NCBI GenBank assembly: GCA_964633875.1
Contig: CAZWKL010000006.1
Location: forward strand, 19,144-83,143
Source of the DNA: an uncultured Pseudomonadales bacterium
Lineage (GTDB): Bacteria > Patescibacteriota > Microgenomatia > UBA1400 > PJMF01
Direction of reading: 5' to 3'
Length of the DNA: 64,000 nt
Position 1 is the first letter of the stretch. Each line of letters opens with the position of its first letter. This document shows, piece by piece, positions 162-46,965 of the stretch. The position numbers were made by a program, and so were the translations under genes. Below the pieces are notes generated by a model. The model was not told the DNA's origin. It did not search any database and worked only from the letters and a program-made list of their open reading frames with translations.

Positions 162-335
162 ATGAAGGTATTTTACCACCATTAAGGTATAAATCTATTT
201 CAATCACTTGAAGTTTATTAACTATTAACAAGAATTAACAACAGTGAGTAAATGTTGTTAATCATTAACAAAGTCGAAGTGATTGCCGCGAAGCAAATAA
301 CCCGAGATCACAGCAAGAGATGTTATACTGAAACC

Positions 336-674
336 ATGAAACTACTGCGCATCATTATTGTCGCTATTATCTTGGCAGGACTGGGCCTATTTCTCCTAGC
401 CAGACAGGCGGAAAGCAGTTTTGTGCTGAAAATTCCCTTCCTCGAGAAAACCCTGCAAATCGATACTACTAAAATCAACCAATTATCTGAAAACGCTCCG
501 GAAGAGCTCAAAACTATCACTGAACGTGGCCAAGTTGTGGGTGAACACGTGCAGAATGTGCTTGGTTCATCGGTGAAAGTAAGCGACAGCGCCCCGCCTA
601 TTCACGAGCGCGCCCTCGAGTACGGCCGCTACCTCTACTGCCAGGAGGTGGTAAAAGAGTACGAGGCAAAATAG
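336..674 (+). CDS. hypothetical membrane-anchored/secreted protein
   Basis: ORF-track 252..674. The internal Met at 336 begins a hydrophobic segment (MKLLRIIIVAIILAGLGLFLLA) and sits 6 nt after a TGnTATACT box (321-329). Confidence 0.35.
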   Translation: MKLLRIIIVAIILAGLGLFLLARQAESSFVLKIPFLEKTLQIDTTKINQLSENAPEELKTITERGQVVGEHVQNVLGSSVKVSDSAPPIHERALEYGRYLYCQEVVKEYEAK

Positions 675-683
675 TAAAATCTC

Positions 684-3026
684 CTACAAATTACTCCGAC
701 TAGTAATCTCCGCCTCAACCACATCTTTGTCCTGACCGTATTTCAGCCTGGAGAGCTGCCTGATCATCTCAGCCTGCTTGGGGTTCATTCGTGCTTTCAC
801 AATATCCATATCCTTATACAGCGACATACTGAACGGCGGCACCGGCTCGTTGTTGACGATGGTATTGACATAAACGTGATACTTCTCGATGTTGGTCAAG
901 TCGGACTCGTTGAAAGTGGGTGCAAACTCATGCTGGAGGAAGTTGGCATCCGGCACACCCACTCGGAAAGCCACCATGGTGCCGACGTTGCCGAAAACCG
1001 CGTTCTTCACTTCCTCATCAATTTGAGAAACAAACTGGTTGGCCACAATCAAATTCAGCCGGTATTTGCGAGCCTCAGACAAAATCACCGCAAAATCCTC
1101 AGTGGCGTAGTTCTGGAACTCGTCGACATAGAGATAAAAGTCCTTGCGCTCCGCCATCGGCATATCCTGGCGGCTCATAGCGGCGGTGAGCACTTTCGGC
1201 ACCAAAATGAGCCCCAAAAACTTGGCATCTTCTTCGCCCAAAATACCTTTGGAAAGATTGCAGAGGACAATTTTTTGCTCATCCATAGCCTGGCGAAAAC
1301 TAAAAGAGCTCTGCGGCTGGCCAATGATATTGCGCATGGTTTTGTTGGTCACAAACCGGCCAAACTTCGACACAATGTAGTCCAAAACTTCGGACTTGTG
1401 GAAATCAGAAGTCTGGGCAATTTGGTCTGTCCAGTAACGGCGCACCACCGGATCTTTGACGTAGGGCAGCAATTCATCCACGTACTTGCTGTCAGTGAGA
1501 ATACGTACTAGTTCAATAAAAGTGCTGCCCTTTTTGTACATGATCGTGAGCATGGCGTTGCGAATAGCGTGCTCAAACCGCGGACCAATAATGCCGGTGC
1601 GATGCGGATCATAGAGCTTGTACATCAGACCAATGACCGAGCTAACCACAAAATGCCGCTGCTCTTCGGTTTCAGCTTCCATCATGTTGAGTCCCATCGG
1701 CCGGACCAAGTCTGAGGGGTTGAAATAAATGACGTCATCAGCGCGCTCGGGCGGCATTAGTTGCAGAATGTCCTCGACAAACTCGCCGTGCGGATCAATG
1801 GCACAAACACCCTTGCCTGCTTCAATGTCCTGCAAAATCATCTCTTTAAGAAACTCCGACTTACCAGTACCAGTTTTACCAACAATGTACATGTGCCGGC
1901 GGCGGTCATCATCGCCGATGTAAATTTTCCGCTCTTCACCGCGATACTTTGAAGTACCAAGGTAAAGACCTGCTGTGGGGATTTCGTGCGGTGCCGGCGC
2001 GTTTTTGGCATTGAGCCACCGAATATGATGAGTTTCTACCGTTTTGTTGGGAAAGTGCATCATTGTCGCCAACTCCTCGGTGTTGAGAATAAAAGTGTTG
2101 CGACCAAAAAGCGGCATGTAGCGGTAAATAAAGTCAATCATGAATAAATGTTTGAGAAAAATCCGGCCGCTTTTGAAAGAATTATAAGCAGAAGTAAACT
2201 GAGCAAAAGCGCCTTTGAGATTATCTAAATGAGTGTCTGCCTGGAATTTTTCCGGAGCGGAAACTACCAGGCGCAAAGAAACTCTAAAACCGGGTTTGTC
2301 TAGCTTGTTGCCGATACTTTCCATTTCTTTGGGATCGTGAGAGTAGGTGGCTTTTTCGGGGTCGGCCTCGCGCTTTTTCTCATTGGCAGTATATTTTCGG
2401 CCCTTCTTTTGCCACCTGTTTCCTTCCGGTTGAAGCAAAATTTGTAAGATCGCGCCCTCGCCGTCACTCATTTTGGAAAAAGCGGAAGTGAGCAGTGACA
2501 GTCCATCGGTCGGTAAGTCTTTGTAGGTTTTGATCGGATAAAAATTGTGCTTGGCCAACTTAAGAGAAGCAAACTCAACTCGGCCTTTTTCATTAAAAAT
2601 ATTGACTTCATCTACTTCCTTAATACTGGCGTTGGGATAAGCTCCGTAGATTTGTTTTTCCACCAAATCTTGAATTTTTCTGGAACAACTGACATAAAAA
2701 GCAATGTCTTCTTTGAGAGCCACAATTTCGAAGGCAAAAATATCTTCAGCTTTGATAAATGACCAAAAACCGCCTTTTTTGAGTGAGTAAAGACCGGCGA
2801 ACATCTGCTCGGCGGCATCAATTTTGATCTCGTTGTCGCGCGGCAGTTTCACCAGCAGAGTCACAAAATTGAGGGCATACTTTTCGCGATTACGATGTTT
2901 GTACCACTGAAAAAGCATGTAGCCAAAAACGGCCAAAATAGCAGCAGCCAACAACAACATCAATAAAGACAAAAAGAGCTGCAACAGCATTTGACTAAAA
3001 TTAGTAGTAGCGAGCGTGTCAAACAT
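684..3026 (-). CDS. type IV secretion coupling-protein-like ATPase (VirD4/TraD/TrwB family)
   Basis: N-terminal TM helix; Walker A IVGKTGTGKSEF; Walker B-like LYVDEFQNY; 780 aa. Architecture matches T4SS coupling proteins (TrwB_AAD_bind-type). Confidence 0.6.
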   Translation of the reverse strand: MFDTLATTNFSQMLLQLFLSLLMLLLAAAILAVFGYMLFQWYKHRNREKYALNFVTLLVKLPRDNEIKIDAAEQMFAGLYSLKKGGFWSFIKAEDIFAFEIVALKEDIAFYVSCSRKIQDLVEKQIYGAYPNASIKEVDEVNIFNEKGRVEFASLKLAKHNFYPIKTYKDLPTDGLSLLTSAFSKMSDGEGAILQILLQPEGNRWQKKGRKYTANEKKREADPEKATYSHDPKEMESIGNKLDKPGFRVSLRLVVSAPEKFQADTHLDNLKGAFAQFTSAYNSFKSGRIFLKHLFMIDFIYRYMPLFGRNTFILNTEELATMMHFPNKTVETHHIRWLNAKNAPAPHEIPTAGLYLGTSKYRGEERKIYIGDDDRRRHMYIVGKTGTGKSEFLKEMILQDIEAGKGVCAIDPHGEFVEDILQLMPPERADDVIYFNPSDLVRPMGLNMMEAETEEQRHFVVSSVIGLMYKLYDPHRTGIIGPRFEHAIRNAMLTIMYKKGSTFIELVRILTDSKYVDELLPYVKDPVVRRYWTDQIAQTSDFHKSEVLDYIVSKFGRFVTNKTMRNIIGQPQSSFSFRQAMDEQKIVLCNLSKGILGEEDAKFLGLILVPKVLTAAMSRQDMPMAERKDFYLYVDEFQNYATEDFAVILSEARKYRLNLIVANQFVSQIDEEVKNAVFGNVGTMVAFRVGVPDANFLQHEFAPTFNESDLTNIEKYHVYVNTIVNNEPVPPFSMSLYKDMDIVKARMNPKQAEMIRQLSRLKYGQDKDVVEAEITSRSNL

Positions 3027-3044
3027 ACTTAGATTATACTTTTT

Positions 3045-4852: not shown

Positions 4853-4853
4853 A

Positions 4854-6584: not shown

Positions 6585-6596
6585 AGGTGTATTGTA

Positions 6597-6986: not shown

Positions 6987-7007
6987 AGCGCCATTATATA
7001 GCACTCA

Positions 7008-8256: not shown

Positions 8257-8790
8257 TTAATGTTTCATCTGAATGTGGGCAAATAATTCTTGTGTTAATT
8301 CGTTGGTGGCGCGTTCAAATTTTGCTTTTTCATTGGTGGAAAAGCGCTCTAAAACATAATCACTTGAGTCCAGCAAGCGACTGCCATCCCTGGTGTCTAC
8401 GCCCACGCGCACATGCCAAAAATTTTTGGTGCCCAAGTGCTGATAGACAGAAAGCAGACCGTTGTGGCTCTGCGGACCAGTGCCAAACTGGATCTTGTAC
8501 TGGCCAAGTTCCAAATCCAGATCATCGTGAATTACATACAGGTCTTTGGTTTCCGCCTGGTAGTAATCCAAAATTGCCCTCACCGGCTGGCCTGAGAGGT
8601 TCATGTAGGTGGTGGGTTTGGCAAAAAGCAAAGTCTGTTTTTTGCAAATCTGGGCGGAAACCTTGGGTTGATTGGTGAAGTTATCGCAAACAAACTTGCT
8701 GGCAAGCTTATCCAAGACCACAAAACCGGCATTATGCCTGGTTCCCTTAAATGATTCTTCCGGGTTGCCTAGACCAACAATGACTTTCAT
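8257..8790 (-). CDS. pth: peptidyl-tRNA hydrolase
   Basis: Signature MKVIVGLGNPEESFKGTRHNAGF. Start moved to the internal Met (ORF-track start 8844 would overlap the divergent gene). Confidence 0.8.
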   Translation of the reverse strand: MKVIVGLGNPEESFKGTRHNAGFVVLDKLASKFVCDNFTNQPKVSAQICKKQTLLFAKPTTYMNLSGQPVRAILDYYQAETKDLYVIHDDLDLELGQYKIQFGTGPQSHNGLLSVYQHLGTKNFWHVRVGVDTRDGSRLLDSSDYVLERFSTNEKAKFERATNELTQELFAHIQMKH

Positions 8791-8837
8791 GCCTTCATTG
8801 TAACATTCATAGCCGCTTGCGGTATAATGGTCAAGAT

Positions 8838-9725
8838 ATGTCAAAAAGCATCACCAAAAATCAAGCGCGCCAGCCCTATTTTAGCATTATCATTCCTACC
8901 CTCAATGAAGAAAAATACTTACCCAAATTATTGGCAGATTTGGCAAAACAAACTAGCGACTCTTTTGAAGTGATTCACGTTGATGGCAGTTCCGAAGACA
9001 AGACCGTTTCAGAGGCTAAAAAATTCGCCAACAAAATTGCTCTTCAAAGCTTTGTGGTCAAAAAAAGAAATGTTGCTTTCCAGAGAAATTATGGCGCCAG
9101 CAAGGCCAAAGGAAAGTGGTTGGTATTTGTAGATGCTGATAACAATCTGCCCCGATATTTTCTTGACGGCCTCAAGTATCAGCTGGCTAAACGTGCAAAC
9201 GTTGACACTTTCACCACTTGGCTTGAGCTTGATAATGGCGGCCAACTCAACAAGGCTATAGAGCGTACTATTAACTACAGTTTCGAGCTTTACAAAGTTT
9301 TGGGTAAAGATGTGGCGATGGGAGCGATGATTGGCGCCCGCAGAGATATTTTTAACCGGTTTCAGTTTGACGAGCGGCAAAAAGTTTATGAAGACACTCT
9401 TTTCATTCAGCAGACAATCAAACATGGGTATAACTACGATATTTTCCATGAACCCAGATACAGCACTTCATTGAGAAGAATGGAAAAAGAAGGCAAGTTG
9501 AAAATGATTTTAATGATTGCGCTGATGAACCTGCGCTACCTGCAAGGAAAAGATTTTTCCTCTATCAATCACGGCTACGTGATGCAAGGAGGTGGTTATT
9601 ACGCTGAGGAAAGTAGCTCTCAGCTGCAAAATTTTCAGAAATTTATCAAAAATACTTCCAAAAAACAACTTTGGCAAGCCAGAAAAGTTTGGAATTACAT
9701 TAAGTCCGAGCTAGAAAACGACTGA
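8838..9725 (+). CDS. family 2 glycosyltransferase
   Basis: FSIIIPTLNEE ... VFVDADN motifs (GT2 DxD fold). The ORF-track start 8817 is a TTG overlapping a TATAAT box (8823-8828); the ATG at 8838 is preferred. Confidence 0.6.
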   Translation: MSKSITKNQARQPYFSIIIPTLNEEKYLPKLLADLAKQTSDSFEVIHVDGSSEDKTVSEAKKFANKIALQSFVVKKRNVAFQRNYGASKAKGKWLVFVDADNNLPRYFLDGLKYQLAKRANVDTFTTWLELDNGGQLNKAIERTINYSFELYKVLGKDVAMGAMIGARRDIFNRFQFDERQKVYEDTLFIQQTIKHGYNYDIFHEPRYSTSLRRMEKEGKLKMILMIALMNLRYLQGKDFSSINHGYVMQGGGYYAEESSSQLQNFQKFIKNTSKKQLWQARKVWNYIKSELEND

Positions 9726-9746
9726 AAATGACTATTGGTCTATCAT

Positions 9747-11615
9747 TTATTGGTGTATCATCAGCCCAATCTCTTTTAAAGAAGTAGCCTGATCCCATTT
9801 TTTGTCATCTCTGAACTTAATTAGCCTGGGAAAACGCAGCGCCACGCCGGCTGTATGCAAAGGAGATTTAGTGATTTCATCAGCGGCTATTTCCACCACT
9901 TGTTCAGGCGATACCCAAACGTCCGGTCGCAACTCTTTGGGAACTTGGTATTGAAAGGGCTTCTTGGTGGTTGCCAAATTATCCGCGCGGTTTTTCATTT
10001 CCCGGAACTGCTCATCGGTGAGACCGGTGCCAATTTTGGCAATGGTTTTGATTTCATTCTCATCATCCAGAGTGCCAACTAAAAACGCGCCAATTCCAAA
10101 GGCCGATCTTTTCCCTCTGCCAAAATAGTAACCCATCACTACCAAATCCAGCGTATCGGACAGCATGCCTGATGTACCCTCGGATTCTTTAATTTTAATC
10201 CAGCGCCAGCCCTTGCGACCACTTTGGTAATTGCCTGCGACTTTTTTTACCACCGCTCCTTCCAGTCCTTCGCTCAAAAATTGCTGGTGAAGCCGGCGTA
10301 CTTCTACCGGATCATCAGTTATTACCGCCGGAGTTGGCTGCAAAATCTCGTTTTTTTCAATCAGCTTTTCCAGCCTTTTTCGGCGCTGTTGCATCTCCTC
10401 ATCAATCAGCGGAGTGCTGTCTATTTTCAGCACATCAAAAACGTAAAATCTAATCGGCACAGTTTCCATAGCCGTATCGATATTATGTTTTCTTTTTCTG
10501 GTGATAGTTTGTTGGAATGGCAATAGTTTACCGCTTTTGGGATCATAACCAATCGCTTCGCCGTCAAGAATGCAGCGGTCGCAGTTGAGGTATTGACCAA
10601 TGCTTTCCAGTTCCGGAAACATGTGAGAAACATTTTCCAGATTTCTGGTAAAGGCTGTAATTTGGTCGGGAAGGGTGGTTTGATTGTCGGCATCTTGGCT
10701 GCCTCGGCCACGAATAAAATGTACTTGCACCCTCAAACCGTCATATTTAGGCTCAACTATGACTTGACCCATTTTGTCGATGATTTCTTGAGCGGAATTA
10801 AGCCGCTGAGTCAGCGCCGGCACTACCGGCACTCCGACTTCAACCGTGTATTGTTCCAGCAATTTTTTGGCGTCGGCTTCGGTTTGCAGTTCATCTTTAT
10901 GAGCCAGGTAAAATTTTGCCAATCCTCCGGCATCAGCGCGTTTTTGGTAGGCAGCTTCCAATAAATTCCGGTGATTTTTGCCACCAGTCACAGCCCACGA
11001 CAACGAATCCAAAATTGTCATCGTGGAAAACCCCAATCTCAACTTGCCTAAAATAATTCTCACTACGTATTTAGCGGCTACCGGCTCCAATTGGCTTAGT
11101 AACCCCACCAACTTAGCCACTTTTTGTTCTTGTGAGCCGGCGCCGGCATATTTAGCAATAACCGTCAACTCATCATAAACTTTTTGGAGGGACAAATTAT
11201 CGGTAATTGGTTTCGTTTGAGCAATCACATTATAAGCAGTAATTCCCAAATCTCCTTCTTTTTTGAACAATTCTGTTACTTTTTCTACGGCGCTGGTGGC
11301 TGCTTCTACTGTTTCTATTGTTTCCAAATTTCCTGCGTCGTCGCCAAACAAACCCTGATTGTTGTTTTCCACTTTTGCCAAATCTAATTCTTGCGGCCAC
11401 AAACGCGCTAAAGCTCTAATCACCATCTTGTTGGAAAGCTGAAACTCCAGCGACTGATATGACGGCACCAAGCTGCCTTGCATTAAGTAAGTAGCAATTT
11501 CTATTTCCGCGGTGGGAAGTTTTGAGTACAGTTCGGCCAATTTTTCGGTCATGATCAACCGAGAACTGACCTGCTCTAAATCTTCTAAATACTGGGCAAA
11601 AGTAAGGAATTGCAT
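9747..11615 (-). CDS. ATP-dependent DNA ligase with long N-terminal extension
   Basis: Adenylation motif I KYDGLRVQVH (KxDGxR); further nucleotidyltransferase motifs and a C-terminal OB region; 622 aa. Confidence 0.75.
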   Translation of the reverse strand: MQFLTFAQYLEDLEQVSSRLIMTEKLAELYSKLPTAEIEIATYLMQGSLVPSYQSLEFQLSNKMVIRALARLWPQELDLAKVENNNQGLFGDDAGNLETIETVEAATSAVEKVTELFKKEGDLGITAYNVIAQTKPITDNLSLQKVYDELTVIAKYAGAGSQEQKVAKLVGLLSQLEPVAAKYVVRIILGKLRLGFSTMTILDSLSWAVTGGKNHRNLLEAAYQKRADAGGLAKFYLAHKDELQTEADAKKLLEQYTVEVGVPVVPALTQRLNSAQEIIDKMGQVIVEPKYDGLRVQVHFIRGRGSQDADNQTTLPDQITAFTRNLENVSHMFPELESIGQYLNCDRCILDGEAIGYDPKSGKLLPFQQTITRKRKHNIDTAMETVPIRFYVFDVLKIDSTPLIDEEMQQRRKRLEKLIEKNEILQPTPAVITDDPVEVRRLHQQFLSEGLEGAVVKKVAGNYQSGRKGWRWIKIKESEGTSGMLSDTLDLVVMGYYFGRGKRSAFGIGAFLVGTLDDENEIKTIAKIGTGLTDEQFREMKNRADNLATTKKPFQYQVPKELRPDVWVSPEQVVEIAADEITKSPLHTAGVALRFPRLIKFRDDKKWDQATSLKEIGLMIHQ

Positions 11616-11630
11616 GCTGCTAGTGTATCA

Positions 11631-12722
11631 CTATTCAAGCAGTGAATACGTAACACCCTTAGTCACTCCGCGTTTCTTAATCACCCCTTTTTGAATCAAG
11701 TCTTTGACATCCCGCAAGATTGTGTCCACCGAAATGTTGGGCAGTACCCGCTGCATGTCATCGGAGGTAGCCGACTGTTGTTGTTGAAACAACTCCAACA
11801 AAAGAATCTGCCGTTCAGACAGGGCCACCTGCTCTCCCAGCTGCTTTTTGAGCTTGAGGTCTTGGGAAAGTTTGAGCACCTGCTGTTTGACTTTGTCGAT
11901 CTCAATAGCCAGACCATAGCAAAAATACTCCAGCCAGTAGGTGAGGTCTTGCTCGGCGGTTTGCTGGGCGGAAAGCAGCGCTTGGTAGTAGGCGTCAACA
12001 TCGCTGTCGAAGTACTGTTCGATGGAAAAAAAGCGCTTGAAATCGTAGCCAAGCGTGTAGAGAAGGAGCGTAGCCATGGCCCGGGCGGTGCGGCCATTGC
12101 CCTCAATAAACGGGTGGATATAGACCAACTGGTAGTGGGCAATGGCCGCCCGCAACACCGGGTGGGCCAACTTAACTTCATCGCCATGCGCCCAAGCAAA
12201 AAAATCAGTAATCAAGTAAGGAATCTCCACCGAAACCGGCGGCCGAAAAACCACCCCGCCGCCAGTAGCGCTGCGGACAATCACCTGCTTCTCACGGTAA
12301 CTGCCCTGATACTCCGGGTCAACCAAGCCCTGCACCGTCAGTTTGTGAACGGTTTTGAGCGTGTCTTCCGTGAAAACCTTACCAAAGTCCGGATTTCTTT
12401 GCGCGTCAATCCAATTAATGACGCTGCGATAATTGATCACCTCCTGAATGTCGCGCTCACGAGCCATAATACCGGTACGCTTAACCACCTCGTGAGTATC
12501 GGTGGTGTCAGTCATCCGCACCACCTGCATGGCTTGAGCTTCAGTCAAGTCGTTGCCTTCAATTTTGGTGCCAAAGTGAACCGTTCTGTTGATAGCATCA
12601 TCCCGGAACTTGGCTTCCCAAGCAGGCACCAGCGGCGCGTTCTCAATCAGCGCCTTAGCCGACTCAATTTTGGTAATGTAGGTGAGTAGATTGTTGGTAA
12701 TTGAGTATTGCGGCTGATACAT
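11631..12722 (-). CDS. Fic family protein (AMPylase/phosphotransferase-like) with C-terminal winged-helix domain
   Basis: Canonical Fic motif HPFIEGNGRTARAMATLLL. An N-terminal FGTKIEGN segment resembles the class II inhibitory xIEGN motif. Confidence 0.8.
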   Translation of the reverse strand: MYQPQYSITNNLLTYITKIESAKALIENAPLVPAWEAKFRDDAINRTVHFGTKIEGNDLTEAQAMQVVRMTDTTDTHEVVKRTGIMARERDIQEVINYRSVINWIDAQRNPDFGKVFTEDTLKTVHKLTVQGLVDPEYQGSYREKQVIVRSATGGGVVFRPPVSVEIPYLITDFFAWAHGDEVKLAHPVLRAAIAHYQLVYIHPFIEGNGRTARAMATLLLYTLGYDFKRFFSIEQYFDSDVDAYYQALLSAQQTAEQDLTYWLEYFCYGLAIEIDKVKQQVLKLSQDLKLKKQLGEQVALSERQILLLELFQQQQSATSDDMQRVLPNISVDTILRDVKDLIQKGVIKKRGVTKGVTYSLLE

Positions 12723-12776
12723 ACTAATACTAAGTATAACGCTATTCTTGCAAAATTTGCAGGGATAATTAATAAT

Positions 12777-17291: not shown

Positions 17292-17367
17292 AAATTTTGT
17301 TCTGGGCTATAATGACTTTCGCCTGCAAGCTTTGCCGAACCCAAGTATTTAGTTTACAATAAAACCA

Positions 17368-19849: not shown

Positions 19850-19858
19850 TTTAACCTT

Positions 19859-22535: not shown

Positions 22536-22580
22536 AGGTACTAGTATACCTCAACTGTGCTGTAGTATAATATTTTGGTG

Positions 22581-25307: not shown

Positions 25308-25371
25308 GCACTTCAAGTACTAGTATAATTTTGGTATCGTCTGTATCTTGTAAAATTAACAAAAGGAGATT

Positions 25372-25773: not shown

Positions 25774-25795
25774 GAAGAACTAGTAATAGTTTCGC

Positions 25796-25825
25796 AAAAA
25801 CCCCCTTTTACTAGGGGGTTTTTGG
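25796..25825 (+). terminator. Rho-independent terminator after pilin paralog 9
   Basis: AAAAACCCCCT-tttact-AGGGGGTTTTT: 6-bp GC stem, 6-nt loop, T-run downstream and A-run upstream (potentially bidirectional). Confidence 0.6.
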
Positions 25826-25848
25826 TTAAAATAGGTTATAATAACTCC

Positions 25849-26831: not shown

Positions 26832-27069
26832 TTTATAAATTAGCAATAGAGTTCAAATACACCGGCGCATAAAAAAGACACACTATTGATTTTCTCTTAA
26901 TATGGTATGCAGTCATTTTCAATGTAAACCATATTAAGGCCAGACAAGGGAAGTTTGAGGGTCGCAATTGGCTTTCCAGTAAAGAGGCGCTGCAGCGGTA
27001 TGTCAAAAATAGAGAACGAATGAGGTAAGGGGTTGGTTCCACCCCACCAATACCTGATATAATTGGCTT

Positions 27070-31487: not shown

Positions 31488-31604
31488 AAGAAAAGTATAT
31501 CACAATATATCGGTAGTTGTAGGTTTGAGTTTTGTACCCTGCATTGAACTGCCCTGTCAAGTTACGCTCTGTCATCATCAATCAATTGTTGTTATAATAT
31601 CGCC

Positions 31605-36400: not shown

Positions 36401-36628
36401 TCCTAAGTCTATTGAGTCAGTTACAGCAAAAAAGTTTGCATTGTCTTTGAGAAACTTTTCAGCTGCTGCTATTGCTTTAAGCGCGGCGGATTTTTTTTGA
36501 TCTTTAATAAGCTGTTTGACCTCTTCCACATAAGCATCAAACTCGACAGAAGGATTAGAAAATTCAACAGGTTCATTGTCAGGCTGAATATCAGGCTGAT
36601 GGTCGGGACGAGGTTGTTCGGACATCAA
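33485..36628 (-). CDS. large acidic coiled-coil protein of unknown function (1047 aa)
   Basis: Long uninterrupted ORF with an E/D-rich N-terminus, a PPQQPPPPEQPP tract and extended helical regions; no enzymatic motif seen. Confidence 0.4.
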   Translation of the reverse strand: MMSEQPRPDHQPDIQPDNEPVEFSNPSVEFDAYVEEVKQLIKDQKKSAALKAIAAAEKFLKDNANFFAVTDSIDLGDLHDEASALEDEPQTEPETEIGEEPLGGAEMEEDDSEKEQQPINEEAEPKAEEENSTPEQIIRSVREKVVNLRHEYDLDLLGDNPEEIAIERLREIAQEYYVEKRDVLPSNFASALVKKLREQRLFYLGQAEKKAQGGQEQPPQQPPPPEQPPKAEDDNDWPPKYLTELLELMALENPRIAAYETELRGLDYSVSQARINAIEADLNTNIDKIVHLQELVNIHVEHANERINSEQVNRLVALRNASRQAEDLLEKMRSLLKEIDKKKEEAEAKKETDQWNADVKLFVDEIEKVEAIDLNNIAPHSSAPGAHEKDDLEALKTNLENAYKAIDAAGYLDQTNYSHSSTTDAIEKLVGPTKLGGRYGEAVRRINEAIETAKSEVLKTDQIKKMDELWQMLEDNDKMRGTRGDNKVTDAVDAMKRIAKEHFNNEEERELLDISILLRDAVDEAGGSDWPALLAWADVTKAREAAGSFILMDHLRKFRHFGDFAIKDKLGVEHKINIKEVVDFLRNELFNGPFTRSRKHDADVQDEKDRHWNYAAKGNPTGNLVYDEHTNPNGVFTINQVLEREFPELAHFPDFIKLAMRRFVVVSEMRSDAYIPEYAMYQGSPVPGFDATASADASPMAAILYKAQSGASLPKYRVYSMVTRLPEKVSSITRYSLPIPSGLPSGFRSWMNKTFSPLKEKFSATEVVYERSIYAAMEPPNSTEREKKSSNKSVKNLETFVMVRNRMIADFSPYGIDYVQLHEDLKFQPTLWDWINGQWRGEKMKDVPTYYQFRTMQEEIREFDKFVDGDFGTIHSVDQLDTAMGQLVDRIKNFKGMWICLPKGERTFANTIQLMSVVYLKKIYNKYSALLGEGVPEGAPPSVRFRRENLKPKAKRFAEVAQKVLGSAATLPQEVYSKGDHPLQKVIEQLDGWHSIGRPWRLFFDDEREVRSHDLSRTFENMWGPEFKTIYDNWLREPTIEEQDPNK

Positions 36629-36719
36629 AAAGAATTATACCACCACTTGAGAAATTACGCACATAAGCAATAGCTTTTTATGCCAACCGCGCCAACCGTG
36701 TTTGCGGTATAATTGCCTC

Positions 36720-39700
36720 ATGGCTAATGCGGACGCACCTGCTCTACCCTTAACCAAACTCGAGAATGTAAAATACTTCAAGACCGACGTTTCTCCAGAG
36801 GATTTTAAGGAATTTCTCACCACCCTCCCTCAAGCCATTTCCGGCAGTGGCGAACTGCAAAAAGGGGTGAAGGTTTTTGTACCAGGCAACGAAAAATTTA
36901 ACAGCAGAAAACTTGAGGCCGCTGACGATTCTGATTTGGTTTCAGAAGAACACAGTGCTGAAGCGCTTTATTATTCCGATATCGTCCGGCTCATTTCCGA
37001 CTCGATGAGATGGCTCATGGAAAATGGCACTCATGAAGAAATTGGGAACTTAAGAGACCGGTTTGACCACCTAAACAGAAATCCCAACGCCATCTTAACC
37101 CAGTGGGGAGGGGTTAAGGCTGGTGGCGAAAGCGCTGTTTCCGAAATAGAAATTCAGAAATTTAGAGGTGACATTCCGGAGCTGATCAACTATGTTTTGT
37201 ATTTTGCCAAAAAAGAGTTTAGCGACCTGGCTACGGAGCCATCGGAAAAAGATGGGGCGGCAGCGGCTCCAGGGAAACCGGCTAAAGGCGATGATCAGGC
37301 TGTCGTTGGGGGAAAGCCAGAGGCAGACGGAGGGGCTGATCAAGCTGGCTCAGCAGAGCCGGATGAGCAACGCCCTCAACCTCCCAGTCCGGAACAAGAA
37401 GAAGCCCACAAGAAAAAAATCCTCTACGAAGCCACCTGGATCTACAACCAGGCGCTGCACGATTTTTTCATCACTCACGGCATTGATTACGACTATCTCG
37501 AAACTCACCCAGAGTTGCGCGATCTAATTCTCTCCGAAACTGTCAAAATCCTGGAAAGCCGCTCCGAGCGCGAGCTGATGATTCTTTTCGCCAACCCAGG
37601 CAGAAGGTTGGAAATACTCAGAGAGCTTTACATCAACCTGGCCCAATCGCCGCAACTTGCCGTTGGCTTGCAAAATTTTTACGACACCTACGCGCAAGCG
37701 CTACCCGAGGAGGCTCGCCAGGAATTTCTGGCTAGCTTGTCCCGCTCTGAAAACGTTCTTTCCCAGGCCATTCAAGGCAAAATGGTTTCCAACGATTACC
37801 AACTGCGCCAACAAGTCGCGGCAGTTTTGGGCACCGACAGCCCCACCTTGATTGGCGTGGGTTCATCGGAGTTCACCCAAATTATGGGCTCGATTCAGAT
37901 TAATATTGATGCGCTCCTAATCGGTCAGGGTGTTGATTTCCTGATAGTTAGCTCTGATGGAAACGTCGAAAAGACTAGCGAAAATCCCCACAACGCCATT
38001 TGGCTGATTCAAAAAATGAGCGATGACCATTTGCTGTTGATGCTCGGTGTTCCTCCCGATATCCGTCTTTCCGCGGAAGCAGTAGAGCGGTTGAGAAAAA
38101 TCGTCATCAATTACGCCAGAATGAGGGCGATTTATCTGGCTGAGCGCGCGGAAAATCTGGCGATTGCCGAGGGAATCAATCCGCTGAATGAGGCAGATGC
38201 TAATGCTATCGCCGCCAATGACACGGTCACTGCCAAGCGAGCACTACTAGCGCCTCATCAAGATACGGCTGGATTAATCAAGGCAGAAGAAGACTCGGGA
38301 AATGGCGGCGAAGTCGTTTATGGAGCTTTAACCCAAAATATTAAACAGCTTGAGGCCAAACGGCAAGCTCAATGGCACTCACTTTCCAAGGAAGAACAAG
38401 AGCTCATCCTGGTATTTTTGGGCAAAGAAATTGGGGCAGAGTATTACGAAGTCCCTTTTGAAATCGGGCTGTTTAGACTGCAAGCGCTGATAGCTGAAGC
38501 TGAAAAAACCGCGGTTTCACAGGCAGAACTGCTCAAATACCAGGCAACCTCACAAGCGATGATGAGTGAGGCTTTGTACGCCTTTGCCTACGAACAAGAA
38601 ATTGCTGCTAGGCAGGAGTTTCTGCGCCAGGAAATTTTAGGAGAGTACTTCGCCGCCGTTGATGAAGCAGAGCTGGCTGCCATGGCTGAAGAACTTGACT
38701 ACGAGAATGAGGCGCAACTCTATGAAGAAAGTCTGAGTAATGTTGTGCGCGCTCATGAAGGTGCGGGAGAGCGAGCTGAGGCAGGAGCAGCGGGCGGGCG
38801 TTTCGGCAGGTTGGGAAGAATCGGCGATCGTTTTAGAAACCGGTTTGCAAAAGAAGGCCGCTTTTCTCCAAAACAAAAGTTGCTTGGTGCTATTAAAAAA
38901 ACCGGAGCTAGAAAACTGGGCAGTGCGGCGGCTCAAAAACTAGGTGGTTTGATCGGTGGCCCAGTGGGCGCGGCGCTTGCCAAAGCGCTAACAGGAAAAA
39001 ACAGAAAGTGGGTGGGTGGCGCTCTGGCTGGAGCCGGGTTGTTGGCCTTAAAAGGCCTTGCCGCGATGTTGCAGGGCGGTAAAGCCTTGCTGATTGGCTT
39101 GGGAGCTGGCGGCGCTACTGGGGGAGCGCTGTTGTTGTTGGGTTTAACCGGGCCGGTTGGAGCGGTGATCCTTGGTGTTGGTGCGGGTTTAGCTGCCGCT
39201 GGCGGGTATAGTTTATTGAGCGGAGCTGGAACCGCAGAAGGAGCGGCCGGTCTTGGCGGCGGTGGCTTGATTGGAGGAGCGGGCGGAGTTCCGCCTGCCG
39301 CTTACACCGCTATGCCAGCAGAAGCTGTAAGTGGCGCGGAGGCCACAACTGGCGGCGCGGCGGCGGCCGCTATCACCACAACTACCGCTACAGCCGCCGG
39401 CGCCGCCAGTTGGACTACAGTCGCTAGCTTCCCCACTGCGGTCTTAATTCCCATTTTAAGCCTAGCGCTGACAGCAGTAGCCAGCCTCATCGTCATCCTC
39501 ATCATCCAAGGCTCCTTCCTCATCACCCTGCCGCCGTCTCTTAGTAGCAGAACTTACACCAGCAACTTGAGCGGTTTTGAGGGCTGTTGGCCCACCACCG
39601 GCAGAATAACTTCATATCGCACCTACATGATCGGTGGTGGTGGTAGCAACCATGCCACTGTGGGTGCTGGTAAGTACTTACATGGCTACGAGGGTCCGGG

Positions 39701-40940: not shown

Positions 40941-41016
40941 AATTCTAGTATAATAAAAATAATAAAAGCAGAGGGGTGCTTAACGCCAACAATAATTAGC
41001 AGATAGTAAAATCAAA

Positions 41017-42141
41017 ATGGACTTCGAAAACCCAGAATACCAGCAAGGCTTCCCTGAGCCGCCGCCGCCAAAGCCGCCGGGTAAGTTCGAGAGGCGCGCC
41101 CAGGCTACGGCCACTTTCATCCGCCAGCACGCCTTCAAAATTTTTCTGGTTTTGCTGGCGGCGGCGCTGATAATTTCCGCCATCATTGCCGCTCTCACCC
41201 CCACCTTGCCAGAGGCAATCCCTACTCCGCTCAATCCCATCAGCTCAGGAGTAGCAGATTCGCCCACCGGTATGCGGGTGAGCTTTCAGAATCCCAACCC
41301 CAACCTCCCCGATAAGCTGCCCATTCATCAAGCCACCTCCAGAGTGCAAAGCTCAGAGCAAGTCATCGCCAATCTCTCCAGTCAAATGGATATTCCCAAA
41401 GACCCTTCGCCCTATTCCAACAATATTTGGACTAATTTTGCCACCAGCGAACAACTTCTACTCCATCCGCAAAGCGGCAAAATCACTTACCTGGCCGGAA
41501 CAGATGAGGAGGAGTTTTTGCCCGAAACAGAAGGCGCCAATAATTTAAATGAGCCCTTCAATGTTGACGAGGCCATCAGCATCGCGGAAGAATTTATTGG
41601 CAAATTGTCGAATTTTTCCGGTCTAACCGCTCAGCGCCACAGTGTTGCTTATCTAGGGGATGAGGGCGAGCTGGAAATCAGCGTTGGTGCTAAAGTTATT
41701 TCCATTCCCTTTGTCTTCAACCTCAGCAATTATCCTGTTTATTTTTCGGGAGAAAGAGAGGCTTACGTCACCATTCAAATCAATAAAAATTATCAAATCA
41801 ATAAGGCCGATTTTTATCCGCCGCCACCCAACACCCAGGTGGTTTCAGAAAAAATTATCATTTCTTTAGATGAAGCCAGCCAATTAATCGCGGCTGGCCA
41901 GGCCACTGTCATCGCGGCCGGCAGTAGCACGGGGGTTTTTGACGTCAAAACAATTAACAATCTGAGGATCACCGACACTCAACTTGAGTATCGTCTCAAC
42001 CCGGAAAATCAGCTTATTATTCCTTATTTCCGTTTTGAAGCAGAGGGAAGCGCAGCCAATCAAAGCGCCCAAACGCCGCCCACCAACCTCACCCTTATTC
42101 TCCCTGCGATTCCCACCCTCGAACCCACCACCCTCAACTAG
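41017..42141 (+). CDS. bitopic membrane protein (short cytoplasmic N-term, one TM, ~300-aa ectodomain); VirB8-like topology
   Basis: Single TM helix FKIFLVLLAAALIISAIIAAL after a Pro-rich N-terminus. VirB8-likeness is inferred from topology and gene context only. Confidence 0.3.
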   Translation: MDFENPEYQQGFPEPPPPKPPGKFERRAQATATFIRQHAFKIFLVLLAAALIISAIIAALTPTLPEAIPTPLNPISSGVADSPTGMRVSFQNPNPNLPDKLPIHQATSRVQSSEQVIANLSSQMDIPKDPSPYSNNIWTNFATSEQLLLHPQSGKITYLAGTDEEEFLPETEGANNLNEPFNVDEAISIAEEFIGKLSNFSGLTAQRHSVAYLGDEGELEISVGAKVISIPFVFNLSNYPVYFSGEREAYVTIQINKNYQINKADFYPPPPNTQVVSEKIIISLDEASQLIAAGQATVIAAGSSTGVFDVKTINNLRITDTQLEYRLNPENQLIIPYFRFEAEGSAANQSAQTPPTNLTLILPAIPTLEPTTLN

Positions 42142-43499: not shown

Positions 43500-44807
43500 G
43501 TGAGCATGGCTGATAACAACTCTCAATCAACTACACAAGAATTTCTAGACATTCATGATATTACCAACGATCTGGTAATTATGAAGGATGGCACCACCTC
43601 GTTGGTGCTCACCGTTGATGCCATGAACTTTGGGCTGCTGGCTGAAGAAGAGCAAGACAGCATTATTTATGCTTATGCTGGCTTGTTGAATTCGCTCAAC
43701 TACCCCATTCAAGTACTGGTGAAATCGCAAACCAAAGACGTCACTTCTTATCTCAGGCTTTTGGAAGAGCAGGAAATGCAAGCCAACACACCGGAAAATC
43801 GCCAGCGTATCCGTCGCTACCGCGAGTTTGTGGCCAACCTTATTCATGAGCGTAATGTTTTGGACAAAAAGTTTTATGTAGTTATTCCCGCTTCGCCGCT
43901 GGAACTGGGTTTGCTTACCGCCGATAGCGTTATTCCAGGCAGACAAACTTTTGATGTTACCAGCGTGGAAAGAAGTGTTTTGTTGGAAAAAGCTAAAAAC
44001 ATTCTGGAGCCAAAGCGCGATCATCTCATTTCTCAGTTTGCCAGAATTGGTTTGTTTTCCAGACAGCTCGCCACTCAAGAAATCATTCAGTACTTTTATA
44101 CCAGTTATAATCCTGAGGCTTCAGAAGGTCAGGAAATTGCCGACAGCAACAGTTATTCGACTCCACTAGTAAAAGCTAGCTTTGAAGGATTTGCTATGCA
44201 GCAAAGCGATTCAACCAACACTAATTTGCAACAGCCGGGAACACCAGAGGTGGCGCCTCAAATGCCGCCGACTTCGCAAGAGCCGATTTTACCGCAAGAG
44301 CCGGAGGTGGCGCCGGAGCCGCCACCAGAGCCAGTGGCCGAAGCTCCCGTGATTCCAACTGAGCCTGTTGCTCCTACTGAGCCAACCGCGCCGCCAGCGG
44401 AGCCTCAGCCCGCAATTGAAGCGCCGCCAATTCTAACTGGGCTGATGATGGAACCACCACCACCTGTTGAGTCGCCCGTCGTGCCGGCTGTTCCAACCGC
44501 TCCCACTCTGCCCACCGAGCCAGTTTTGCCAACCGCTCCCACTCTGCCCACCGAGCCGGTAGTTCCGCCCAACAGCAACCTGCTCGATCTGGGATCAGAC
44601 CAAGCAACGCCAGGCATTCCTGTGGAAAATAATGTTGAGTTACAAAAAGCCCCGTTAGATGCTGACGTGGCCGCGCCGGAACAAACTGCTCCTCCAGTCG
44701 CTCCTCAAACAGAACCGCAGCCATCCGAGGACCAGGCAAGCTCAGCAAGTTCAGAAAATGAAGAGGGCGGCGGCAACACCCCGCCGCCAATCGCGGAAAT
44801 TCAGTAG
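43500..44807 (+). CDS. hypothetical protein with Pro-rich tandem-repeat C-terminal half
   Basis: N-terminal ~230-aa globular region; C-terminal PEPV/PTEP repeats (PTAPTLPTEPV twice). Confidence 0.4.
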   Translation: MSMADNNSQSTTQEFLDIHDITNDLVIMKDGTTSLVLTVDAMNFGLLAEEEQDSIIYAYAGLLNSLNYPIQVLVKSQTKDVTSYLRLLEEQEMQANTPENRQRIRRYREFVANLIHERNVLDKKFYVVIPASPLELGLLTADSVIPGRQTFDVTSVERSVLLEKAKNILEPKRDHLISQFARIGLFSRQLATQEIIQYFYTSYNPEASEGQEIADSNSYSTPLVKASFEGFAMQQSDSTNTNLQQPGTPEVAPQMPPTSQEPILPQEPEVAPEPPPEPVAEAPVIPTEPVAPTEPTAPPAEPQPAIEAPPILTGLMMEPPPPVESPVVPAVPTAPTLPTEPVLPTAPTLPTEPVVPPNSNLLDLGSDQATPGIPVENNVELQKAPLDADVAAPEQTAPPVAPQTEPQPSEDQASSASSENEEGGGNTPPPIAEIQ

Positions 44808-44901
44808 ACCCCAAGTCCGGGTCTCAGGTTTGGGCAGAAGCAAACTTGGCTTTTAAGGCCGGTCTTTATCAGTCCGTGCAATTAAAGTACAATGTCAATT
44901 G

Positions 44902-46965
44902 ATGTCGAATTTGCTGTCCAACCTACCACTACCTTTCGGAAAGAAAAAGTCCGCCAACAACGCGGACGGGACTAGCGAAACCGATTACGAGCAACGCAAC
45001 CTAGAAAAGCTCAAAGAGTTCTCTCGCGGCCTGGTCACCATTCAAGATATTATTGCCCCCGAAGCAATTGAGGTGGATTTCACCTACCAAAAAATCAATT
45101 CCACCTACACTAGAACTTTGTTTGTGGCCGGCTATCCGCGTGCGGTTCCGGCCAACTGGCTCTCGCCGTTGATCAATTTCCCCTGGCAACTGGCGGTTTC
45201 CATGTTTATTTTTCCGGTTGATTCCGCCGAAATTCTCGACAACCTCAAGCGGAAAATCACAGAAATGGAAGCGGAAATTCAATCAGATCTTCGCTCGGGC
45301 AAAATCAGCAACATCAACACCGAGGTCAAGCTTGAAGACGCCCGCTTTATCCGTGAGGAATTGGCCAAAGGCAGTGAACGCTTTTACCAATTTGGCCTCT
45401 ATGTTACTCTTCAGGCTCAAAACAAAGACGATCTCGACAGAGTTACCAAAGCGGTGCAGTCTTCGCTGGGCTCGCTGTTGATCGTCTCAAAAAAAGCCAC
45501 CCTCCAGATGGATGAGGGCTTCAAAACCACCCTGCCTATGGGCACCGACAAGCTACTGGTCACACGTAACATGGACACCACCTCGCTGGCCACCACTTTT
45601 CCTTTCACTTCTTCTGAGCTAACCATGGAAACCGGCATCATGTACGGCATCAACGAGCATAACGATTCGCTGGTTATTTTTGACCGTTTCAAAATGGAAA
45701 ACGCCAACATGGTGATTTTTGCCAAGTCTGGTGCGGGTAAGTCTTACACGGTTAAACTGGAAATTCTCCGCCAGCTGATGTTTGGCGCCGAAGTGCTGGT
45801 GATGGACCCAGAGCATGAGTATGAAGAACTGACCAAGGCTGTGGGCGGCGAGTATATCAATTTCACCTTTGATTCAAACACCAAGATCAACCCCTTCGAC
45901 CTCTCCAACCTTTACGAAGAAGGAGAAAATGAACTGGGTCAGAAAATTATTTCGCTGCACGGACTGCTTAAAGTGATGTTGGGCAGCATGACGCCGCAGC
46001 AAGACGCCATGCTGGACCGGGCGCTGGTGGCTGCTTACAAAGCCAAAGGTATTACTCCTGATCCAGCCACCCAAACCAACGAGCCGCCGCTGATGGAAGA
46101 TGTTTACAAGGCTCTGATTGGCATGGAGGACAAGGACGCCGACGACATCGCCGTGCGCCTGGAAAAATTCATCACCGGCTCGTTTCGCGGCATCTTTGAC
46201 CAGCCGTCCAATCTCGACATTCGAAACCAACTAACAGTTTTTTCCGTCAAGGAAATGGAAGAAGATCTCCGCCCGATAGCCATGTATATTATTTTAGACT
46301 TCATCTGGACCAGAATTAAAAAAGATCTCAAAAGGCGCATTTTGGTGGTTGATGAGGCTTGGTATTTCATGAAGCATCAAGATTCTGCTTCTTTTCTGCA
46401 CTCAATGGTGAAGCGGGCCAGAAAATACTATCTTGGTATTACCACCATTACTCAGGATGTAGAAGACTTTTTACACAACGACTACGGCCGGGCCATCGTC
46501 ACTAACGCCTCTATTCAGTTTTTGATGAAGCAGTCTACCGCCTCCATTCCGATTTTGGCCGAAACCTTTTATCTCTCACAGGGTGAAAGGCAGCTATTGG
46601 TCACTTCAGACATTGGTGAGGGCATTTTCTTTTCCGGTCAAAACCACGTGGCCATGCGGGTTGTCGCCAGTCAAGAAGAACATGATTTAATCACCACCAA
46701 CCCCGAGGAAATTTTGAGGCGCCGGCAAGAGCAGCAGGCCCGGGCGGCTCAAGGGCTAAATGACAGCGGCAACCCGCCTCAAAACTCTCGGCCGGCACCT
46801 TTTCAGGCGGCTCAGGGCGGATTAATGGGAGGAAATCAGGAGCAATCGCCAGCTCAAAACGATCGGCCTGCACCCGAATCAGAGCCTTCCAGACAATCTC
46901 CGCGCCAGGCTGGCTCTCACACCATCGAAGATTACACCGCGCCAACAACTCGAAGTGAAGATTGA
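44902..46965 (+). CDS. VirB4/TrbE/PrgJ-like T4SS ATPase
   Basis: N-domain ...RTLFVAGYPRAVPANWLSPLINF...; Walker A FAKSGAGKSY; Walker B ILVVDEAWYF; 688 aa. ATG lies 8 nt after TACAAT (44888-44893). Confidence 0.75.
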   Translation: MSNLLSNLPLPFGKKKSANNADGTSETDYEQRNLEKLKEFSRGLVTIQDIIAPEAIEVDFTYQKINSTYTRTLFVAGYPRAVPANWLSPLINFPWQLAVSMFIFPVDSAEILDNLKRKITEMEAEIQSDLRSGKISNINTEVKLEDARFIREELAKGSERFYQFGLYVTLQAQNKDDLDRVTKAVQSSLGSLLIVSKKATLQMDEGFKTTLPMGTDKLLVTRNMDTTSLATTFPFTSSELTMETGIMYGINEHNDSLVIFDRFKMENANMVIFAKSGAGKSYTVKLEILRQLMFGAEVLVMDPEHEYEELTKAVGGEYINFTFDSNTKINPFDLSNLYEEGENELGQKIISLHGLLKVMLGSMTPQQDAMLDRALVAAYKAKGITPDPATQTNEPPLMEDVYKALIGMEDKDADDIAVRLEKFITGSFRGIFDQPSNLDIRNQLTVFSVKEMEEDLRPIAMYIILDFIWTRIKKDLKRRILVVDEAWYFMKHQDSASFLHSMVKRARKYYLGITTITQDVEDFLHNDYGRAIVTNASIQFLMKQSTASIPILAETFYLSQGERQLLVTSDIGEGIFFSGQNHVAMRVVASQEEHDLITTNPEEILRRRQEQQARAAQGLNDSGNPPQNSRPAPFQAAQGGLMGGNQEQSPAQNDRPAPESEPSRQSPRQAGSHTIEDYTAPTTRSED

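Follow-up and report, generated by a model that had tools for sequence, protein, structure and literature searches.

Sigma-70-type -10 boxes directly before start codons and probably leaderless gene starts in a Microgenomates-type CPR bacterium

The DNA analysed here (the window; 64,000 nt) belongs to a Microgenomates-type CPR (Patescibacteria) bacterium with a moderate GC content of ~47%, and among its genes are those of T4SS pilins, VirB6-like and VirB4-type proteins, valS and rpmH. A TATAAT, TACAAT or TATACT box ends 6-9 nt before the start codon in about 25 window genes; the spacer measures exactly 6 nt in 13 of these, and the boxed starts reach as far as position 62422. The 27 candidates listed in the analysis start with ATG in 26 cases and with GTG in one (27070), and TTG was never needed. 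Boxes, two leadered comparators and one terminator-like hairpin are given below as span, strand, box, spacer to the start codon and gene.

321..338, plus: TGT-TATACT 324-329 (TGT from 321), 6 nt, ATG 336; small membrane protein, candidate start
3024..3038, minus: TATAAT 3033-3038, 6 nt, ATG 3026; TraG/VirD4-like coupling protein, 780 aa
6582..6596, minus: TACAAT 6591-6596, 6 nt, ATG 6584; GH3 hydrolase, box adjoins the upstream gene's stop codon
6984..6998, minus: TATAAT 6993-6998, 6 nt, ATG 6986
8788..8805, minus: TGT-TACAAT 8797-8802, 6 nt, ATG 8790; peptidyl-tRNA hydrolase
8823..8840, plus: TATAAT 8823-8828, 9 nt, ATG 8838; GT2 glycosyltransferase
11613..11630, minus: TGA-TACACT 11622-11627, 6 nt, ATG 11615; ATP-dependent DNA ligase
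12720..12738, minus: TATACT 12733-12738, 10 nt, ATG 12722; Fic protein, leader probably very short
15513..15530, minus: TACAAT 15525-15530, 9 nt, ATG 15515; RecF/SMC-like ATPase
17355..17370, plus: TACAAT, 7 nt, ATG 17368; 397-aa protein, T4SS-pilin domain at the C-terminus
22533..22548, minus: TATACT 22543-22548, 7 nt, ATG 22535; ECF-type sigma factor
22566..22583, plus: TATAAT 22566-22571, 9 nt, ATG 22581 (6 nt to GTG 22578); first T4SS pilin
25300..25374, plus: leadered comparator, TTGACT-18-TATAAT 25300-25329, leader ~40 nt, AAGGAG, ATG 25372; pilin
25802..25823, plus: intrinsic-terminator-like hairpin CCCCTTTTACTAGGGGG (25802-25818) with T-run, separated by 13 nt from the -10 box that follows
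25837..25851, plus: TATAAT, 6 nt, ATG 25849; pilin
26410..26429, plus: TGT-TATACT 26413-26418, 8 nt, ATG 26427; pilin
27055..27072, plus: TGA-TATAAT 27055-27063, 6 nt, GTG 27070; 1142-aa secreted or membrane protein
31485..31502, minus: TGA-TATACT 31494-31499, 6 nt, ATG 31487
31590..31607, plus: TGT-TATAAT 31590-31598, 6 nt, ATG 31605; VirB6-like membrane protein
36623..36642, minus: TGG-TATAAT 36634-36639, 8 nt, ATG 36625 (5 nt to TTG 36628); 1046-aa protein
36708..36722, plus: TATAAT 36708-36713, 6 nt, ATG 36720; 1406-aa M23/NAGPA hydrolase
41007..41019, plus: TAAAAT 41007-41012, 4 nt, ATG 41017; weakest case
44888..44904, plus: TACAAT 44888-44893, 8 nt, ATG 44902; VirB4-type ATPase
50194..50214, plus: TGC-TATAAT 50197-50202, 9 nt, ATG 50212; rpmH (L34)
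50367..50387, plus: TGA-GATAAT 50370-50375, 9 nt, ATG 50385; rnpA
56033..56073, plus: leadered comparator, TATAAT at 56033, leader ~25 nt with GAGGAAAGGA, ATG 56071; rplY
57276..57290, minus: TATAAT 57285-57290, 6 nt, ATG 57278
59542..59562, minus: TGC-TATAAT 59554-59559, 9 nt, ATG 59544; valS
62408..62422, minus: TATAAT 62417-62422, 6 nt, ATG 62410; VanW/PG-binding protein

The putative promoters of 8790 and 8838 stand back-to-back, their start codons being 47 nt apart. The initial annotation had cited eight of these hexamers, and all were found where it placed them except that before 41017, where TAAAAT is indeed present, though 1 nt away from the proposed "about 41006-41011". This is the single weak case, because 4 nt between box and ATG do not suffice for a transcription start site (TSS) on the A; a rival TATAAT at 40949-40954 would leave a leader of ~55 nt, and the orthologues examined gave no support for the box. 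The count of "at least eight" leaderless-type starts proved too low, and the conventional leaders ascribed to pilin 25372 and rplY were confirmed, with a -10 box, a leader and a Shine-Dalgarno (SD) sequence for both. The statement that TTG starts of some ORFs overlap the -10 box did not hold literally for any of the four inspected: at 8817 and 36702 the TTG precedes the hexamer by 3 nt, both times as TTGCGGTATAAT, and the TTGs at 22575 and 44899 follow it at 3 and 5 nt, respectively.

Several start codons are anchored independently of the box. In the peptidyl-tRNA hydrolase, DNA ligase, RecF-like, RnpA and L34 proteins, the beginning of the Pfam profile (positions 1-2) falls within residues 1-3, namely position 1 on residue 3 for the hydrolase (8790), position 2 of the N-terminal domain on residue 3 for the ligase (11615), and positions 1-2 on residues 1-3 for the RecF/SMC-like protein (15515). 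TTG 8844, considered as the start of the peptidyl-tRNA hydrolase ORF, was rejected by the profile alignment. Conserved N-termini mark ValS (MDxRYDH), the VirB6-like family (M-x-K-R-x-L-L) and a PrgI-like protein (MREHPIPQDI), while the MLN(K/V)L of the first pilin, conserved at the two syntenic loci L120 and L121, favours ATG 22581 over GTG 22578. For gene 336 another possible ATG without the motif lies upstream at 252, and the VanW/PG-binding gene likely has its true start at ATG 62410, not at ATG 62518.

The distance between -10 box and start codon, which the initial annotation had suggested as a genome-wide check, was evaluated with blind starts, for which every stop-to-stop ORF was taken to begin at its first ATG regardless of the motif, and a box was required to match TATAAT at at least 5 of 6 positions with A2 and T6 obligatory and to end 6-9 nt upstream. 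In the window gene set, which is a greedy ORF call in which the first-ATG rule mislabels some starts, 19 of 54 genes qualified, 9 with a spacer of exactly 6 nt. By chance, 0.75 would be expected at the hexamer frequency of the whole window (binomial P = 5e-22), and 2.3 when the stretch 10-44 nt upstream of these genes serves as background (Poisson P = 6e-12). Internal ATGs used as a control had a box in 1/307 and 4/386 cases, and the same script applied to 50 kb of E. coli K-12 found a box at 1/43 genes and a clean SD peak. The two strands together contain 38 perfect TATAATs, 13-14 of which precede the start of an ORF of 120 aa or more by 5-9 nt. At 38 loci from relatives, 105 of 562 genes qualified against ~26 expected, a count that includes a few near-duplicate loci, with 36, 25, 23 and 21 genes at 6, 7, 8 and 9 nt; near-duplicates were removed for the placement counts, the pooled TGn and -35 statistics and an unbiased scan of positions -18 to -3 in 1075 genes, in which TATAAT was the most enriched hexamer (89 vs 3.3 expected). 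Both motif and spacing are direct observations. An artefact of chance, composition or mis-chosen start codons could draw on the higher AT content of upstream regions relative to coding sequence and on the alternative TTG/GTG starts in several ORFs, but the P values under blind starts, the internal-ATG and E. coli controls, the homology-anchored starts and the persistence of the pattern across orthologues speak against it, and with a probability close to nil it is effectively refuted by the controls.

The box motif equals the sigma-70 -10 consensus, and the modal spacing of 6 nt is the canonical -10-to-TSS distance, so that the canonical +1 falls on the A of the ATG. At pooled loci TGn precedes 22.5% of the boxes vs 5.6% of other -10-like hexamers (P = 1.5e-17), and G at -14 occurs in 47% vs 21%; in the window, 17 of 25 boxes have this G. 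The -35 signal is weak: T rises to 50%/40% where the TTG of a -35 element with a 17-bp spacer would stand in the pooled loci, the best -35 match in the window averages 2.76 vs 2.43 at random positions, and canonical -35/-10 pairs are not enriched in the window (27 found vs 27.6 expected).

Placement of the box follows the presumed transcription units (TUs). Where the upstream neighbour is divergent, window genes have a box in 9/12 cases and an SD in 0/12, whereas co-directional window genes with a gap below 12 nt have a box in 1/10 and an SD in 4/10; for the box, the trend in the relatives is alike (29-31% vs 12-13%). Leaderless-type starts and SD-led genes coexist, as the initial annotation had maintained, and its view that no room is left for an SD agrees with the finding that box and SD 4-mer co-occur in no window gene, the candidate spacers ranging from 4 to 11 nt. 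Both the TU-first placement and the exclusivity towards SD are directly observed. SD motifs are sparse overall in the window and in relatives, therefore some non-SD mechanism must exist. This sparsity, together with the unusual CPR bS1 of only 3-4 domains (PMC9297842), would suit a reading in which the TATAAT-like element is an AU-rich, SD-independent translation signal (S1-binding or a Bacteroidetes-type non-SD RBS) within a longer 5′ UTR whose promoter lies elsewhere. However, the element equals the -10 consensus with strict A2 and T6, it is accompanied by TGn and a weak TTG at -35 spacing that no RBS model predicts, and it concentrates at TU-first genes, unlike the GeneMarkS-2 group B motifs (PMC6028130). 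Space also argues against that reading, since the divergent start codons of 8790/8838 and 22535/22581 are only 42-47 nt apart and the terminator hairpin stands 13 nt before the TATAAT of ATG 25849, so that in neither situation is there space for another promoter. We consider a translation signal of this kind improbable.

Judged from the related loci, the box-at-start trait is common to related Microgenomates-type CPR genomes. Orthologues of the relatives keep box and distance while the spacer sequence drifts, a conservation that is observed directly. For valS, the box lies at 6-9 nt in 25/34 relatives amid otherwise unalignable upstream sequence, and some of the exceptional orthologues have a TAGGAGG leader instead. 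L120 and L121 retain box and distance for eight genes, with TATAAT + 7 and + 9 nt for the first pilin (22581), TGA-TATACT + 6 and TGG-TATACT + 6 for 26427, TATACT + 6 and + 7 for 31487, TGT-TATAAT + 6 and TATAAT + 6 for the VirB6-like 31605, TGG-TATAAT + 9 and TGA-TATACT + 6 for 36625, and TATAAT + 6 and TTG-TATAAT + 6 for the M23 hydrolase 36720, in L120 and L121, respectively. Both loci also keep the GTG of 27070 together with its perfect TATAAT at 6 nt, and 25849 has an identical layout in L121 (terminator, TATACT, 6 nt, ATG). Many orthologues of VirB4 44902 have TACAAT, TAGAAT or TAAAAT + 7-8 nt; in others a stop codon abuts the ATG.

A second rival accepts the promoters as real, with short-leadered mRNAs (3-10 nt) translated by an unknown 30S-dependent route. 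The ~40% of spacers that measure 8-10 nt, the broad pooled distribution in relatives, and the orthologues of 43506 that hold TAAGAT/TACGAT at 10-11 nt all lean this way, but the mode is exactly 6 nt, which 27070, 31605, 36720 and their orthologues hold precisely. In choosing its start site RNA polymerase allows for distances of 6-9 nt, and mRNAs whose leader is no longer than 5 nt act as leaderless in other bacteria, both of which count against this rival; we rate it as unlikely too, if by a hair less so than the translation signal.

Based on these findings, we propose that start-fused sigma-70-type promoters, giving leaderless or near-leaderless mRNAs in Microgenomates-type CPR, are very probably the explanation. 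With a box 6-9 nt before the start codon, the mRNA 5′ end probably lies at the start codon, without a ribosome-binding leader. These promoters would be mainly -10-dependent, often with an extended TGn and with a weak -35, and RNA polymerase would start at the A/G of the start codon or 1-3 nt before it. The resulting mRNAs, leaderless or nearly so and without SD, would presumably offer a 5′-terminal AUG/GUG to direct binding by the 70S ribosome with fMet-tRNA, by analogy with the leaderless translation (70S/IF2 route) established in E. coli, Mycobacterium and Deinococcus, while closely following genes of the same TU would rely on SD or stop-start coupling. Starts with 8-10 nt spacers (8838, 15515, 22581, 50212, 50385, 59544 and 12722) may have 1-3 nt leaders. 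We infer the 5′ ends, the ribosomal mechanism and thereby the leaderless status of the boxed mRNAs from sequence.

The boxed genes are probably of the GeneMarkS-2 group C kind, an architecture in which leaderless transcription units make up ~25-50% of the total (PMC6028130). That group is marked by a sigma-70 -10 element (TANNNT) ending ~6-8 nt upstream of the start, a spacer that holds no SD, an AUG or GUG start codon, and a motif that stands at TU-first genes with SD or coupling internally, and the boxed genes share these features. As in Actinobacteria (e.g. Mycobacterium tuberculosis) and Deinococcus-Thermus (e.g. Deinococcus deserti), other genes use SD, and promoters are dominated by the -10 with a weak -35. 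However, Microgenomates CPR are not among the group-C-rich phyla reported in PMC6028130, and here the GC content is only ~47%, the -10 frequently has TGn and comes near to the complete TATAAT consensus, and in apparently co-directional clusters the stop codon of one gene is in many cases followed directly by the box of the next. SD sequences are rare as well, and relatives commonly show stop-start abutment. The boxes also resemble the extended -10 promoters (TGnTATAAT) of E. coli and Gram-positive bacteria in having TG at -15/-14 adjoining the hexamer and a poor -35, but they are fused to the start codon and only ~22-40% have TGn. The group B non-SD motif of Bacteroidetes is likewise A/T-rich, ~10 nt upstream of starts and linked to low SD usage; it is a non-promoter motif shared by first and internal genes and is not a -10 consensus, whereas the -10 consensus here is TU-first-specific and depleted at tightly packed internal genes.

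Leaderless starts are well known in other bacteria and seem undescribed for the Microgenomates-type CPR lineage, for which we looked for a published description and found none; the one CPR TSS set noted, that of Nanosynbacter lyticus, is cited in PMC12641261. A broader reading, to which we give an even chance, is that in Microgenomates-type CPR leaderless initiation from -10-dominated promoters, conserved GUG starts included, is the default of TU-first genes, that many genes in co-directional clusters have their own start-fused promoter, that SD-led genes are a minority beside stop-start coupling, and that valS and virB4 toggle between leaderless, SD-led and coupled modes over evolution. Genome compaction and the reduced CPR ribosome with its short bS1 may be connected with the toggling. 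If this reading is true, standard gene callers would systematically mis-set start codons in Microgenomates-type CPR genomes.

All eight hexamers that the initial annotation had cited as -10 boxes lying a few nucleotides 5′ of start codons are present in the sequence, with the box of gene 41017 (genes are named by their start-codon positions) alone being off by 1 nt. The pattern is real, but eight genes proved too few, as the regions upstream of all long ORFs on both strands contain TATAAT, TACAAT or TATACT, ending 6-9 nt from the start codon, in about 25 genes of the window, and the spacer is exactly 6 nt in the following 13.

Start codons with a 6-nt spacer
336, 3026, 6584, 6986, 8790, 11615, 25849, 27070, 31487, 31605, 36720, 57278, 62410

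Starts with spacers of 8-10 nt may have leaders of 1-3 nt. Gene 41017 has a spacer of just 4 nt, with an alternative TATAAT some 62 nt before its start codon, and the start at 336 is a candidate, with an alternative ATG at 252.

To avoid circularity, starts were defined blindly as the first ATG of each stop-to-stop ORF, and for the statistics a box was counted when it matched TATAAT at 5/6 or more positions, with A2 and T6 required, and ended 6-9 nt upstream. Such boxes were found for 19 of the 54 window genes; the expected number is 0.75 by the hexamer frequency across the window (P = 5e-22) and 2.3 by the stretch lying 10-44 nt upstream of these genes (P = 6e-12). At internal ATGs of the window, used as a control, the box occurred at 1/307 and 4/386, and a 50-kb control from E. 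coli K-12 gave a box in 1/43 genes together with a normal Shine-Dalgarno (SD) peak. Perfect TATAATs number 38 in the window, and 13-14 of them stand directly before a long ORF. Scans for tRNAs and Rfam families in the window yielded nothing of relevance.

The main features of gene content around the boxes are as follows.

46965-52251, chromosomal origin region: dnaA (47164), dnaN (49035), rpmH (50212), rnpA (50385), yidC (51016), jag/khpB (51793)
17368-46965 and 684-3026, large Patescibacteria-type T4SS region, also with VirB6-like, M23/NAGPA hydrolase, PrgI-like, VirB4 and distant VirD4/TraG-like coupling proteins
17368-26831, at least ten PF18895 T4SS-pilin paralogues
21951-22535, minus strand, ECF-type sigma factor, divergent from the pilin array
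9747-11615, minus strand, ATP-dependent (archaeal/eukaryotic-type) DNA ligase with N, adenylation and C domains
11631-12722, Fic-domain protein, adjoining the DNA ligase gene

The cumulative GC skew reaches its minimum at about 46-48 kb of the window, and a few DnaA-box-like 9-mers (46995, 47007, 48768) lie in the intergenic regions flanking dnaA. Synteny of the T4SS region is kept in two further contigs, L120 and L121.

Several properties of the boxes bear on whether they are promoters or ribosome-binding signals. A G stands at -14 in 17 of 25 window sites, and TGn precedes the box at 22.5% of 231 pooled sites, versus 5.6% for other -10-like hexamers (P = 1.5e-17). At the pooled sites T rises to 50% and 40% at two positions of a would-be -35 TTG with a 17-bp spacer; this weak TTG appears only in the 231 pooled promoters, and neither the canonical -35 nor full -35/-10 pairs are enriched in the window alone, therefore the promoters are -10-dominated. 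Window genes with a divergent upstream neighbour have the box in 9/12 cases and an SD in 0/12, co-directional window genes with a gap below 12 nt have the box in 1/10 and an SD in 4/10, and no window gene has both. The divergent start codons at 8790/8838 and 22535/22581 are 42-47 nt apart, with back-to-back boxes in both pairs, and 13 nt separate the end of a terminator hairpin (25802-25818) from the TATAAT of ATG 25849, a layout that is the same in L121. These flanking elements, the placement, the tight spacing and the terminator are features specific to promoters.

The GT2 gene (8838) and the M23 hydrolase gene (36720), which are unrelated, have as promoter one identical 12-mer, TTGCGGTATAAT (8817-8828 and 36702-36713). 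The palindromic GTACTAGTA occurs in exactly three copies in the window (22538-22546, 25317-25325 and 52854-52862), all overlapping a -10 box, at the ECF sigma/pilin divergent pair, the leadered pilin 25372 and gene 52886, respectively; with one mismatch allowed there are 18 matches versus 3.4 expected, and the copy at 52886 is kept in two relatives' loci (L001 and L027). The palindrome may serve as an operator or as an element associated with promoters. A third class of genes, neither SD-led nor leaderless, comprises dnaN, the rnhA-like gene (52383) and the gene for a DUF4012 protein (52886), where the -10 box lies 19-27 nt upstream and the short leader has no recognisable SD.

All matches in a valS-based scan of reference genomes were Patescibacteria/CPR MAGs of the Microgenomates group (Pacebacteria, Woesebacteria), the closest being 93% and 70% identical. 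Many of the closest relatives (loci L001-L038) bear the record title 'uncultured Pseudomonadales bacterium'; as this conflicts with the explicitly named CPR matches and the gene content, which indicate Patescibacteria, these records are probably mislabelled. The blind statistic shows enrichment at 6-9 nt in the 38 relatives' loci as well, where 562 genes gave box counts of 36, 25, 23 and 21 at 6, 7, 8 and 9 nt; at other distances the count is about 6.5 per position (P = 1e-31). VirB4 served to retrieve 80 more metagenomic loci, and hexamers at positions -18 to -3 were scanned in a pool of 100 non-redundant loci with 1075 genes. The most enriched single hexamer was TATAAT (89 observed versus 3.3 expected), followed by TACAAT and TATACT, and the SD-like AAGGAG was about 9-fold enriched; as both types of signal are enriched in these 1075 genes, leaderless-type and SD-led modes coexist, as had been proposed from the window.

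The box is also conserved at individual orthologues. A TATAAT-like box lies 6-9 nt before the conserved ATG of valS in 25 of 34 relatives and at 11 nt in three more, and the upstream region outside the box is unalignable. Three other relatives have an SD-type leader instead, namely TAGGAGG(T)7 in L011 and L031 and TTGGAGGG in L013, and three have neither. With a box in most relatives and an SD-type leader in three, valS shows evolutionary switching between initiation modes.

The N-termini of 27070, 31605, 36625, 36720 and 41017 had no tblastn matches in the 80 VirB4 loci, and orthologues of the first four were found through a protein homologue search and the two syntenic contigs, whose VirB6-like proteins are 65% (L120) and 47% (L121) identical to that of the window; 41017 gained no orthologue support from any of these three sources. 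In both contigs the box and its distance are kept for the orthologues of the cited genes 22581, 27070, 31605 and 36720, and also for those of 25849, 26427, 31487 and 36625, and the spacer sequences differ among the three genomes. For the 1142-aa gene 27070, the GTG follows a perfect TATAAT by exactly 6 nt in 3/3 genomes. Orthologues of VirB4 (44902) carry TACAAT, TAGAAT or TAAAAT with a spacer of 7-8 nt, or else their ATG immediately follows a stop codon. The latter arrangement (..TAAATG, ..TTTAAATG), without an SD, is seen in many CPR relatives (L040-L119) and suggests that termination-reinitiation coupling would be the main mode for operon-internal genes there.

Several of the starts themselves are anchored by protein comparison. 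Pfam profile positions 1-2 align with residues 1-3 in Pth (8790), the DNA ligase (11615), the RecF-like ATPase (15515), RnpA (50385) and L34 (50212); the valS N-terminus MDKRYDYH is kept in 34 relatives, the PrgI-like N-terminus MREHPIPQDI in more than 50, and the VirB6-like family N-terminus M-x-K-R-x-L-L fits ATG 31605. GTG 22578 was rejected as the pilin start, since the conserved MLN(K/V)L points to ATG 22581, as was ATG 62518 for VanW, where the alignment with L001 begins only at 62410; the TTG/GTG ORF-track starts 8844, 15536, 8817 and 36702 were likewise rejected. Database calls near these promoters are often wrong, being either cut to a downstream ATG/TTG, with loss of signal-peptide n-regions, or extended through the -10 box. 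The database places the start of the VirB6-like gene in the window 4 residues too far downstream, two homologues carry extensions that are the translated box (..RYNTAM.., ..CYNCSM..), and one orthologue of the 1142-aa protein is called without its signal peptide.

Doubtful database gene calls
Window: 31605-31617
L120: 5639, 8919-9947, 1187, 4437
L121: 10001, 5571, 5034, 4414

Leaderless translation, considered an alternative or ancient way of initiating, is known chiefly from Actinobacteria, Deinococcus-Thermus and archaea. By analogy with what is established for leaderless mRNAs in other organisms, transcription from these promoters would start on the start codon, followed by initiation of the 70S/IF2 type. 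The architecture of the window matches group C of GeneMarkS-2, in which first genes have a Pribnow box at a distance of 6-8 nt from their start and other genes have an SD, and which, with 25-50% leaderless transcription units, is reported to be frequent in Actinobacteria and Deinococcus-Thermus (PMC6028130). The principal analysis of CPR ribosomes describes bS1 as short and the anti-SD as lost in some Parcubacteria, and leaderless genes are unmentioned (PMC9297842). Our literature search found no paper linking leaderless initiation or genes to any CPR group.

T4SS and pilin genes are thought to mediate CPR-host contact, and start-call errors in them distort signal-peptide and surface-protein predictions; the practical weight of the finding lies in start-codon annotation in CPR genomes, together with design rules for promoters and expression cassettes in the emerging Patescibacteria genetic systems. 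As a prominent and conserved feature of CPR/Patescibacteria, the leaderless mode would add a lineage to a known mode of initiation, and because the CPR, a vast and for the most part uncultured radiation, has reduced ribosomes, the finding offers a handle on how these ribosomes initiate.
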